From NCBI RefSeq assembly GCF_009931435.1, contig NZ_CP043414.1: 64,000 bases of DNA, one strand, 5' to 3'. Source of the DNA: Escherichia coli (GTDB taxonomy: Bacteria > Pseudomonadota > Gammaproteobacteria > Enterobacterales > Enterobacteriaceae). Made by a program: the position numbers and the translations under genes. The notes under the pieces were generated by a model. It had not been told where the DNA came from, searched no databases, and was given only the letters and a program-made list of their open reading frames with translations. Positions 22,218 through 33,924 of this stretch are shown one piece after another. Position 1 is the stretch's first letter, and every line of letters begins with the position of its first letter.

Positions 22218-23183
22218 TTATTTTTCTGCACTACGCAGGGATATTTCACCGCCCATCCAGGGTTTTATTATTCCATCCTGCTCAAGCAATAAAGCGCCTT
22301 GTTTGTCTATTCCGCGTGAAATGCCAAATATTTCTTTATCACCAATGATAAGTTTCACTGGGCGATTAATAAAATTATCCAGTTTTTCCCAGCGCGAAAG
22401 ATAAGGTGCCAATCCTTCTTGCTCGAAGAGTTCCAGCGCCGCACGTAATTCACGTATTAGCATGGCCGCCAACGCATTACGATCGAGATTGATCCCAGCT
22501 TCCTGCAGCGTGATCCACCCCTGATTAACGACACTCTCTTCAACACGACGCATTGCCATGTTGATCCCGGCACCAACGACTATTTGCGCCGCATCGCCGG
22601 TTTTGCCAGTCAGCTCCACAAGAATACCTGCCAGCTTGCGATCCTGCAGATAGAGGTCATTCGGCCATTTAACACGAACTTTATCAGCGCCCAACTTGCG
22701 TAATACTTCCGCCATCACGATACCGATAACCAGACTTAAACCAATCGCCGCAGCCGGGCCTTGTTCCAGACGCCAGAACATCGACAAATATAAGTTTGCG
22801 CCAAAAGGTGAAAACCATTTCCGACCTCGGCGACCACGTCCTGCCTGCTGGTATTCAGCAACGCAGGCATCACCCGATTTAAGCTCTCCGATACGATCAA
22901 GAAGATACTGATTCGTGGAGTCAATAACTGGCAGCACGGCTACACTACCGCCATCCAGCTGACTCAATATCTTTTCGGCATTAAGTAACTGGATTGGCTC
23001 GGGCAAGCTGTATCCTTTACCCGGAACGGTAAAGACATCAACGCCCCAGTCACGCAGTGTTTGAATATGTTTATTAATGGCCGCCCGGCTCATTCCTAAC
23101 GTTTCACCCAGCTGCTCACCAGAGTGAAATTCGCCATTCGCTAACAGGGCGATCAATTTCAGCGGCACGGTGTTATCCTTCAT
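22218..23183 (-). CDS. birA: Biotin-[acetyl-CoA-carboxylase] ligase / biotin operon repressor BirA
   Basis: 321 aa [47 protein letters not shown]... Confidence 0.97.
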
Positions 23184-24208
23184 GAAATTGTCTCCACTGC
23201 GCTCACTTCACCTGATGCGCCAATAAAGCGGACTTCAGGCTCAAGCCAGACATTAAATTTTTCACCAACTTTCTGTCTTACATGATGCGCCAGCTGTACA
23301 ACATCTTCGCTTTTTGCGTTGTGCTCATTTATGAGAACCAGCGCCTGTTGACGGTGTACCGCAGCACCACCAATTTGCGTCCCTTTAAGCTGGCACTGAT
23401 CGATAAGCCAACCTGCTGCCAATTTTACTGAACCGTCTGTCTGGGGATAATGTGGTGCTGTTGGAAATTGTGCCAACAACGCGTTAGCCGCTTCGGCAGA
23501 TACAACAGGGTTTTTGAAGAAACTACCGGCATTGCCATTCACTTTTGGATCAGGGAGTTTGGTGGTGCGCATATGACACACCGCATCAAATACTTGCTGT
23601 GGCGTTACGGTTGTAGGATCCAGACGAGTTAAGTCACCATACGTTAGTACAGGTTGCCACTCTTTTGGCAGGCGCAGACCTACGGCTACAATGGCGAAGC
23701 GGTCCTGGTATTCATGTTTAAAAATACTGTCGCGATAGCCAAAACGGCACTCTTTGGCAGTTAAGCGCACTTGCTTGCCTGTCGCCAGTTCAACACAGTC
23801 AACATAAGCGCAAACTCGCTGTAATTCTACGCCATAAGCACCAATATTCTGGATAGGTGATGAGCCGACACAACCAGGAATTAACGCCAGATTTTCCAGA
23901 CCTGGCATACCTTCCTGCAAAGTGTATTTTACCAAGCGATGCCAGTTTTCTCCGGCTCCTACATGTAAATACCACGCATCAGGTTCATCATGAATTTCGA
24001 TACCTTTGATCCGGTTGATGATCACCGTGCCGCGATAGTCTTCCAGAAAAAGTACATTACTTCCTTCACCCAGAATAAGAACGGGTTGCCCTTCTGCGGT
24101 TGCATGCTGCCAGGCATTGAGTAATTGTTGTTCGTCTTCGGCACATACAATGTGCTGAGCATTATGATCAATGCCAAATGTGTTCCAGGGTTTTAAGGAG
24201 TGGTTCAT
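23180..24208 (-). CDS. murB: UDP-N-acetylenolpyruvoylglucosamine reductase MurB
   Basis: 342 aa [51 protein letters not shown]...; overlaps birA start. Confidence 0.97.
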
Positions 24209-24297
24209 AGCTGCTTTCCTGATGCAAAAACGAGGCTAGTTTACCGTATCTGTGGGGGGATGGCTTGTAGATATGACGACAGGAAGAGTTTGTAGAA

Positions 24298-24330
24298 ACG
24301 CAAAAAGGCCCAGTCTTCCGACTGGGCCTT
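24298..24330 (-). terminator. rrnB operon terminator (single hairpin, T2-like flanks)
   Basis: Immediately 3' of 5S: hairpin GGCCCAGTCGGAAGACTGGGCC followed by TTTTTGCGTTTCTACAAACTC on the transcribed strand. Confidence 0.75.
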
Positions 24331-24342
24331 CTGCTTAATTTG

Positions 24343-24462
24343 ATGCCTGGCAGTTCCCTACTCTCGCATGGGGAGACCCCACACTACCATCGGCGCTACG
24401 GCGTTTCACTTCTGAGTTCGGCATGGGGTCAGGTGGGACCACCGCGCTAAGGCCGCCAGGCA
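24343..24462 (-). rRNA. rrfB: 5S ribosomal RNA
   Basis: Reverse complement reads TGCCTGGCGGCC...GAACTCAGAAGTGAAACGCCGTAGCGCCGATGGTAGTGTGGGGTCTCCCCATGCGAGAGTAGGGAACTGCCAGGCAT (120 nt). Confidence 0.95.
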
Positions 24463-24556
24463 AATTCTGTTTCATCAGACCGCTTCTGCGTTCTGATTTA
24501 ATCTGTATCAGGCTGAAAATCTTCTCTCAATCCGCCAAAACATCTTCGGCGTTGTA

Positions 24557-27460
<2,904 letters not shown>

Positions 27461-27653
27461 TCACAACCCGAAGATGTTTCTTGCGATTCATCATCGTGTT
27501 GCGAAAATTTGAGAGACTCACGAACAACTTTCGTTGTTCAGTGTTTCAATTTTCAGCTTGATCCAGATTTTTAAAGAGCAAATATCTCAAACGTCACCCG
27601 AAGATGAGTTTTGAGATATTAAGGCAGGTGACTTTCACTCACAAACCAGCAAG

Positions 27654-27729
27654 TGGCGTCCCCTAGGGGATTCGAACCCCTGTTACCGCCGTGAAAGGGC
27701 GGTGTCCTGGGCCTCTAGACGAAGGGGAC
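27654..27729 (-). tRNA. gltT: tRNA-Glu in the 16S-23S spacer
   Basis: Reverse complement reads GTCCCCTTCGTCTAGAGGCCCAGGACACCGCCCTTTCACGGCGGTAACAGGGGTTCGAATCCCCTAGGGGACGCCA. Confidence 0.95.
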
Positions 27730-27900
27730 ACGAAAATTGCTTATCACGCGCTGCGTGATATTTTCGTGTAGGGTGAGCTTTCATTAATAGAAAGCGAACG
27801 GCCTTATTCTCTTCAGCCTCACTCCCAACGCGTAAACGCCTTGCTATTCACTTTTCATCAGACAATCTGTGTGAGCACTGCAAAGTACAGTTCTTTAAGG

Positions 27901-29442
<1,542 letters not shown>

Positions 29443-32823: not shown

Positions 32824-33924
32824 ATGACCCCCGAACACCTTCCAACAGAACAGTATGAAGCGCAGTTAGCCGAAAAAGTGGTACGTTTGCAAAGTATGAT
32901 GGCGCCGTTTTCTGACCTGGTTCCGGAAGTGTTTCGCTCGCCGGTCAGTCATTACCGGATGCGTGCGGAGTTCCGCATCTGGCACGATGGCGATGACCTG
33001 TACCACATCATTTTCGATCAACAAACCAAAAGCCGCATCCGTGTAGATAGCTTCCCCGCTGCCAGTGAACTCATCAACCAGTTGATGACGGCGATGATTA
33101 CGGGTGTGCGTAATAATCCCGTTCTGCGCCACAAGCTATTCCAGATTGATTACCTCACTACGTTGAGTAATCAGGCGGTGGTTTCCCTGCTGTACCATAA
33201 AAAGCTGGATGACGAATGGCGTCAGCAGGCGGAAGCTCTGCGCGATGCGTTGCGCGCACAAAATTTAAATGTGCATCTGATTGGTCGGGCAACGAAAACC
33301 AAAATCGCGCTGGACCAGGATTACATCGACGAACGTCTGCCGGTCGCAGGGAAAGAGATGATCTACCGTCAGGTAGAAAACAGCTTTACCCAGCCGAACG
33401 CGGCGATGAATATTCAGATGCTGGAATGGGCGCTGGACGTCACCAAAGGCTCAAAAGGCGATTTACTGGAGCTGTACTGCGGCAACGGTAACTTCTCATT
33501 AGCCCTGGCGCGCAATTTTGATCGGGTATTAGCCACCGAAATCGCCAAGCCTTCAGTCGCTGCCGCGCAATACAACATTGCCGCTAACCATATTGATAAC
33601 GTACAAATTATTCGTATGGCGGCAGAAGAATTTACTCAGGCGATGAAGGGTGTGCGCGAGTTTAACCGCTTGCAAGGGATCGATTTAAAGAGTTATCAAT
33701 GCGAAACCATTTTTGTCGACCCGCCGCGCAGCGGTCTGGACAGTGAAACCGAGAAAATGGTGCAGGCGTATCCACGTATTCTGTATATCTCCTGCAATCC
33801 GGAAACGTTATGCAAGAATCTGGAAACATTAAGCCAGACGCACAAGGTTGAACGTCTGGCTCTATTTGATCAGTTCCCCTACACGCACCATATGGAGTGC
33901 GGCGTATTACTGACCGCGAAGTAA
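32824..33924 (+). CDS. trmA: tRNA (uracil54-C5)-methyltransferase TrmA
   Basis: 366 aa [58 protein letters not shown]... Confidence 0.97.

Follow-up and report, generated by a model that had tools for sequence, protein, structure and literature searches.

The locus raises the question of how an rRNA operon of Escherichia coli came to end in one terminator that looks like a mixture of the two found at the same place in K-12, and whether this end is a rearranged K-12 arrangement or a natural form in its own right. The window, meaning the whole 64,000-nucleotide stretch of DNA that was analysed, carries the operon on the minus strand. Rfam and ARAGORN scans placed 16S at 27901..29442 (-), tRNA-Glu at 27654..27729 (-) and 23S at 24556..27460 (-), so that the rest of the operon beyond 5S spans 24556..29442 (-). 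A StyR-44 Rfam match (124.9 bits, 27468-27576, -) was located in the 16S-23S spacer, immediately 5' of 23S. The genes murB (UDP-N-acetylenolpyruvoylglucosamine reductase; a 342-aa ORF at 23180..24208, -, with its ATG at 24208) and birA (22218..23183, -) follow the operon, and the former was identified by the matching positions annotated murB in K-12 and other genomes. Beyond murB-birA there were genes for tRNA-Thr, tRNA-Tyr, tRNA-Gly and tRNA-Thr, and upstream of the operon there were ORFs whose lengths fit btuB and murI. Because of this context, with the btuB- and murI-sized ORFs on one side and murB, birA and the tRNA genes on the other, the operon was identified as rrnB.

The last gene of rrnB is the 5S rRNA gene rrfB (24343..24462, -), whose limits follow from aligning it with the 120-nt rrfB of K-12; the Rfam scan of the window gave an RF00001 (5S) match of 93.2 bits at 24345..24460. 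The gene differed from K-12 rrfB in two adjacent bases, CT in place of AG. This variant lies near the 5' end (GGCGGCCTTAGCG here and GGCGGCAGTAGCG in K-12 rrfB), it was also present in the rrnA 5S gene of the E. coli genome NZ_CP148423.1, and the same spot reads CCGT, TTT or ACT in other genera.

Between 5S and murB there were 134 nt (24209..24342), close to the roughly 135 bp given in the earlier note on this DNA. The 18-bp unit AACTGCCAGGCATCAAAT, made of the 5S 3' end and the start of the trailer, was found by exact-match search in a single copy in the window (24338..24355, -). The 5S gene is followed by an A-rich 3' trailer of 14 nt, CAAATTAAGCAGAA (24329..24342, -), which stands 5' of a hairpin and, judging from PMC8144298 and general knowledge, is the region where RNase E 3' processing would be expected. 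The hairpin itself, GGCCCAGTC-GGAA-GACTGGGCC (24307..24328, -), has a G+C-rich stem of 9 bp and could be extended by two A-U pairs to 24305..24330. Directly 3' of the stem, the U-tract and tail TTTTTGCGTTT (24296..24306, -) are the same as the tail of K-12 rrnB T2. The sequence between the hairpin and murB reads TTTTTGCGTTTCTACAAACTC, and the locus-specific murB leader, from the terminator to the murB start (24209..24295, -), was 100% identical to K-12 in the alignment. The Rfam scan gave no match between 5S and murB, and Rfam contains no rrB family.

In K-12 MG1655, the gap between rrfB and murB is 300 nt and holds T1, then rrB, then a second stretch of 5S 3'-end sequence and finally T2; T1, the partial 5S repeat and T2 stand in the order given in the earlier note. 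The alignment showed the window to be 166 nt shorter than K-12 in this interval, and identical to it through murB, starting at the 3' side of the base of the hairpin (GGCCTTTTTGCG). The 18-bp AACTGCCAGGCATCAAAT occurs twice in K-12, 150 bp apart, and once in the window. A search with the rrB core (about 115 nt; blastn, word size 7) found nothing significant in the whole 64-kb window, and one hairpin only was present here instead of the T1-rrB-T2 dual terminator of K-12. Thus, the earlier reading of this rrnB end as a single terminator against the K-12 tandem was borne out, and the positions and the sequence given for it were exact; the observation that would have spoken against it, the same single-terminator rrnB end in K-12, did not appear in the alignment, where K-12 has the tandem.

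The description of the hairpin as a T1-like stem in T2-type flanks also proved accurate. Over the 14-nt trailer and at least 15 nt of tail, the window has the sequence of K-12 rrnB T2, and the trailer CAAATTAAGCAGAA is the sequence that precedes the T2 hairpin there; its first 12 nt are shared with the 5S trailers of K-12 rrnC and rrnH. The 22-nt stem-loop was identical at 21 of 22 positions to T1 of K-12 rrnA and rrnD, and at 20 of 22 to T1 of rrnB. The single change from the rrnA/rrnD form, a C at stem position 4, turns a U.G pair into C-G. The stem-loop matched the T1-like pattern C[C/T]C[A/G]GTC-G[A/G]AA-GAC[T/C]G[G/A]G, being CCCAGTC-GGAA-GACTGGG, and a pattern search for the T2-type stem CCATCC-N4-GGATGG found no match in the window. 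Among the operon ends of K-12, rrnA, rrnB and rrnD share a module composed of T1, spacer, 5S' repeat and T2. The K-12 rrnA end equals that of rrnB from 5S through GGCCTTTTTGC, bar one base in the T1 loop, and diverges immediately after it. At rrnG of K-12, 5S is followed by a single T2-type hairpin, and at rrnE by a single hairpin of another kind; rrnC and rrnH continue into tRNA genes.

The 51-nt terminator unit folded at -26.8 kcal/mol (z = -6.3), and none of 200 shuffled sequences was as stable. For comparison, K-12 T2, whose flanks are identical to these, came to -22.7 kcal/mol, the single rrnG terminator to -24.1 kcal/mol and T1 to -32.6 kcal/mol. The stem of 9 bp contains 7 G-C pairs and is closed by the GGAA loop. 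The U-rich UUUUUGCGUUU, which is the tail of K-12 T2, begins at the first base past the stem, and the hairpin is located on the transcribed (minus) strand, 14 nt downstream of the last gene of the operon. Among 12 homologues, 99.2% of the cells paired and two pairs changed on both sides, values that were equalled by 64 of 500 shuffles; the pairs formed the stepwise series C-G/U.G/U-A and A-U/G.U/G-C, which in this small sample gave modest support for covariation. A consensus terminator scan did not call the site. In a positive control, the same scanner found T1 and missed the experimentally validated T2 of K-12, as it missed the window site at 24296-24330. The negative call has little weight against a terminator because the scanner also misses K-12 T2, and its negatives are unreliable for terminators with the TTTTTGCG-type tail. 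Termination at the window site is a well-founded prediction. Its efficiency may be judged by analogy with K-12 T2, which has the same flanks and is given as terminating 100% of transcripts (Orosz, 1991, as cited in PMC8144298).

We considered it probable that the site is an intrinsic (Rho-independent) terminator of the rrnB end, in a natural single-hairpin form without rrB, and that it represents an old, probably ancestral-type empty allele. According to this explanation, RNA polymerase would pass 5S and the 14-nt A-rich trailer and would then transcribe the 9-bp G+C-rich hairpin with its GGAA loop together with UUUUUGCGUUU, and release would be expected 87 nt before murB. Such termination would keep the very strong rrn transcription out of murB-birA. 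K-12 has the same site in a filled condition, occupied by a tRNA-linked repeat that comprises the hairpin of T1 along with rrB, an sRNA gene, and closes with the second 18-bp copy of the 5S-end sequence; the site in the window is "empty". The two hairpin families, C[C/U]C[A/G]GUC-GNAA and CCAUCC-N4-GGAUGG, would both be old in Enterobacteriaceae and would have been shuffled among rrn ends by gene conversion. The window would look "hybrid" when it is compared with K-12 alone because these old families were shuffled among operon ends.

The frequency of each arrangement was surveyed in 5,426 complete RefSeq E. coli genomes, with counts based on BLAST coverage and identity summaries and not on per-genome inspection. 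The tandem was present at rrnB in 2,521 of the 5,426 genomes (46%), as judged by at least 80% coverage of a query that contained the rrB spacer, T2 and the murB-specific flank. A single T1-like hairpin like that of the window was found at rrnB in about 2,139 genomes, by at least 80% coverage of a 61-nt query that included the rrnB-specific tail. About 700 genomes had 5S followed by the T2 stem alone (about 4 of 30 evenly spaced rows), a figure obtained by subtraction and from these rows, since the joined BLAST pieces of tandem genomes give equal coverage. The rows of this kind matched the tandem query only from the 5S end onward, with 99-100% identity, and the arrangement was seen directly in strain F070. 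The rrnB alleles fall into three classes. About 46% are filled, about 14% are empty and have a T2-type hairpin, and about 39%, the class to which the window belongs, are empty and have a T1-like one. With a 321-nt query across the junction, evenly spaced rows gave 21 matches in a single piece (319-321 bp) and 18 in two pieces (487 bp); two genomes matched at 100%, and 524 records at 99% or more.

An estimated 200 or so genomes have the exact 61-nt sequence of the window (3 hits among 40 evenly spaced rows), and about 700 further genomes matched only the first 48 nt of this query, at 100%. T1-like single terminators at rrnB formed an allelic series in EDL933, an O145 strain, strain 550, JJ1887, S1-KEN-05-A and CFT073, and the T1-like single hairpin was also found in ST131 strains. 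The junction type of the window was likewise present in Nissle 1917. CFT073, Nissle and JJ1887 belong to phylogroup B2, EDL933 to E and K-12 to A. The rrB/rrA/rrF core was found in 3,975 of the 5,426 genomes, and 1,451 (about 27%) had no copy at any operon; in CFT073, the rrB core query gave just a 33-nt match. The allele of the window is thus a common natural variant and belongs to already-known biology, rather than being a new rearrangement.

One of the two genomes with 100% identity over the 321-nt junction was NZ_CP148423.1. Its rrnA and rrnD ends had single T2-type hairpins, and no rrB was found in the 115 kb examined. The 16S-23S spacers of its rrnA (33038-33113 in the fetched piece) and rrnD (1774-1849) carry tRNA-Glu; those of K-12 rrnA and rrnD carry tRNA-Ile/Ala. 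It is therefore not only the 3' ends that move between operons, but the spacer types as well. This genome was tried as a proxy for the genome of the window and rejected, as it was not among the closest in a comparison of 24 kb of non-rRNA sequence, and it was kept as an example. The 24 kb in question (34000-58000 of the window) includes a segment with a sugar ABC transporter and an FGGY kinase; it was covered over at least 80% in just 146 of the 5,426 genomes, with a best identity of 98.7%. The source lineage of the window seems to be unrepresented among the 5,426 complete E. coli genomes.

The murB loci of other species were then compared, with one genome per species and 80 loci listed, among which there was no Salmonella and no E. 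fergusonii. About 39 of the 44 informative Enterobacteriaceae loci, that is, those in which the contig reaches 5S or the insert, had a single hairpin upstream of murB, a proportion in which filled sites may be under-counted, as draft contigs break at rrn repeats. Among the others, four loci had an rrB-type insert (L014, L035, L039, and L076) and one had another dual arrangement (L029). The rrB-type module upstream of murB was found in Citrobacter portucalensis, Kluyvera and an Enterobacter. All non-coli Escherichia loci examined had the order 5S, one hairpin, murB. The single terminators of E. albertii (GGCCCGGTCGAAAGACCGGGCC) and E. whittamii (GGCTCAGTCGAAAGACTGAGCC) were both followed by the TTTTTGCG tail, and Escherichia sp. 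E1V33 and the strain E69, labelled "E. coli", had single terminators with CCATCC-type stems. In Citrobacter amalonaticus (L021), the single terminator AAAGGCCCAGTCGGAAGACTGGGCCTTTTTGCG had exactly the stem of the window, again with the TTTTTGCG tail. The single terminator of Kosakonia (L084) had the same stem-loop as the window, and that of Phytobacter (L016) the same core. Both hairpin families were thus represented among the single terminators of the outgroups.

Three of the loci had further features upstream of murB. In L076 (Enterobacteriaceae bacterium RIT691), an rrB-like insert (81% identity) was followed by a 5S-end repeat and the T1-like stem CCCAGTCGAAAGACTGGG. A T1-like stem at the position of the K-12 "T2" shows that the two hairpin families are interchangeable there. 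L029 (Enterobacter sp. JUb54) contained a T1-like and a T2-type hairpin about 60 nt apart, separated by unrelated sequence, and no rrB. In L013 (Escherichia sp. MOD1-EC7003, 1-421), there was an ATG with a frame that resembles a transposase N-terminus, which may reflect an IS insertion between rrnB and murB.

An old empty T1-like site is the simpler reading because this class is frequent and occurs also in sister species and in Citrobacter. We inferred that the empty site is rather likely to be ancestral at rrnB and that the K-12 tandem is probably a derived, filled state, which probably spread among rrnA, rrnB and rrnD of K-12 by gene conversion. As a counterpoint, the rrB module is itself old, being present in Citrobacter portucalensis, Kluyvera and Enterobacter, and repeated loss from a filled ancestor is possible.

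The insert that fills the site in K-12 has been described as a tRNA-linked repeat (TLR) that encodes the sRNAs RrA, RrB and RrF (Stenum et al., 2021, PMC8144298) and is bounded by the 18-bp repeat of the 5S 3' end (PMC8144298, Figure 1 legend). These sRNAs arise by read-through of T1 and bind Hfq and CsrA in vitro (PMC8144298). Termination was given as 87% at T1 and 100% at T2, with about 13% read-through of T1 (Orosz, 1991, as cited in PMC8144298), and the published account stresses the conservation of rrA/rrB/rrF (PMC8144298). It is tempting, if somewhat doubtful, to regard T1-rrB as a discrete insertion that duplicated an 18-bp target at the 5S end, so that operon ends are either filled or empty and RrA, RrB and RrF form an accessory rather than a core family. 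If this were true, the window would present an empty site with a hairpin allele of ancestral type, and the proposed role linked to CsrA and Hfq would be lineage-specific.

Apart from the old empty allele that we prefer, three other explanations could be proposed for the single hairpin. The first is a short-patch exchange, in which a conversion patch of about 15-20 nt, or template switching in the palindrome, put a T1-like stem-loop copied from another rrn operon end into an allele of the F070 type. The alleles of F070 and the window agree on either side, and the only differences lie between AAGGCC and GGCCTTTTT, as such an exchange would leave them. Strain 550 carries the exact T1 stem of rrnA/rrnD inside T2 flanks, and in other genera both families occur at the single position as well as at the second-terminator position, as with the T1-like stem at "T2" in L076. 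The 48-nt unit of the window was also found at the rrnE end of strain S42, where it adjoins yjaB. In detail, this end (NZ_CP010236.1:4141429-4142276) consists of the 48-nt unit, a REP-like sequence and then yjaB, with no yjaA, unlike K-12. However, homology arms of 5-7 nt would be very short for RecA-dependent conversion, the stem of the window is not identical to any K-12 T1, and NZ_CP148423.1 shares the allele, yet its rrnA and rrnD carry only T2-type hairpins. We thought this exchange unlikely as the origin of the window allele. As an exchange of the hairpin between empty alleles, it is still live as a sub-hypothesis compatible with the preferred reading, and the reverse direction would give the allele with the T2 stem.

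The second explanation, proposed in the earlier note, is that a K-12-like T1-rrB-T2 ancestor lost its tandem through unequal crossover or deletion between the repeated units of 5S end and terminator, which left one hybrid terminator. The T1 and T2 units are indeed paralogous and share the 18-bp repeat and the microhomologies AAGGC and GGCCTTT, and MAFFT placed a single gap of 166 nt that opens within the T1 stem and closes within the T2 stem. In addition, the F070 allele (5S and T2) is the exact product expected from a crossover at the 18-bp repeat. However, one crossover cannot yield a T2 flank, a T1-like stem and a T2 flank in succession. The crossover at the 18-bp repeat removes 168 nt and leaves the T2 stem of the F070 allele, not that of the window, and a deletion joining the descending stems at their shared GGCCTTT would leave the 5' flank of T1 in place, a flank with 4 mismatches to the window in 14 positions. 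The 5' flank of the O145 allele, one base from the T1 flank, would fit a stem-to-stem deletion between T1 and T2 for the O145 variant. The single outgroup terminators, the share of this allele class in E. coli (about 39%) and its presence in E. albertii, E. whittamii and C. amalonaticus also argue against such an origin, as do the 1,451 genomes in which no operon has an rrB-type spacer. The mosaic in the window is not produced by either event alone, and we regarded a deletion origin as quite improbable. The more general idea of recombination held in so far as rrn 3' ends exchange sequence, as seen in the 48-nt unit at rrnE of S42; the deletion proposed for the window allele did not hold.

The third, the loss of 166 nt by collapse of repeated rrn 3' ends during assembly, can hardly be entertained, for although rrn operons are classic collapse sites and many draft contigs break exactly here, complete genomes, most of them from long reads, have this junction with every base the same, the junction type is present also in CFT073, EDL933 and Nissle 1917, and the stem is unlike either of those in K-12, a difference that collapse would not produce.

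The allele, which we take to be an ordinary operon-end terminator, has small practical weight, and many reference genomes carry it, among them CFT073, EDL933 and Nissle 1917. The wider meaning concerns K-12, since its rrnB T1T2 arrangement, present in 46% of complete E. coli genomes, is not the norm of the species. Strains of E. coli differ in whether they have the rrA/rrB/rrF family; rrB is missing from rrnB in about 54% of the genomes, and all copies of the family are missing in about 27%. This absence bears on how essential or general the proposed role with CsrA and Hfq can be. In the literature we searched for accounts of how strains vary in the sequence that follows 5S, and nothing usable came up; Anton and colleagues are said to have published a paper on the region downstream of 5S in ECOR strains in J Bacteriol in 1999.

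Among known terminators, the window hairpin resembles K-12 rrnB T2 in its position relative to murB, the trailer CAAATTAAGCAGAA and the AAGGCC/GGCCTT base of the stem, and the TTTTTGCGTTTCTAC tail and the murB leader are identical. It differs in the upper stem and loop, which are CCAGTC-GGAA-GACTGG here and ATCC-TGAC-GGAT in T2, and its stem has 1 bp more and a stability higher by about 4 kcal/mol. Moreover, it follows a complete 5S gene, whereas K-12 T2 follows a 5S remnant of 13 nt (18 bp with the trailer). With T1 of K-12 rrnA, rrnB and rrnD, it shares a near-identical stem-loop and the place directly after a full 5S. However, the 5' flank of T1, CAAATAAAACGAAAGG, differs from the trailer of the window at 4 of 14 positions, and the T1 tail TTTCGTTTTATCTG is weaker and interrupted and runs into rrB; the tail in the window is of the T2 type, and no sRNA lies beyond it.

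The K-12 rrnG terminator and the rrnB allele of F070 have the same plan as the window, namely 5S, a short trailer, one hairpin and TTTTTGC, without a tRNA-linked repeat; their hairpins belong to the CCATCC-N4-GGATGG family, unlike that of the window. Compared with the K-12 site of the rrB tRNA-linked repeat (PMC8144298), the chromosomal site is the same and the window holds the 18-bp sequence that flanks the repeat. The repeat itself is absent from the window, where the 18-bp unit is single, and the strain should, as far as its sequence tells, be unable to make RrB from rrnB.
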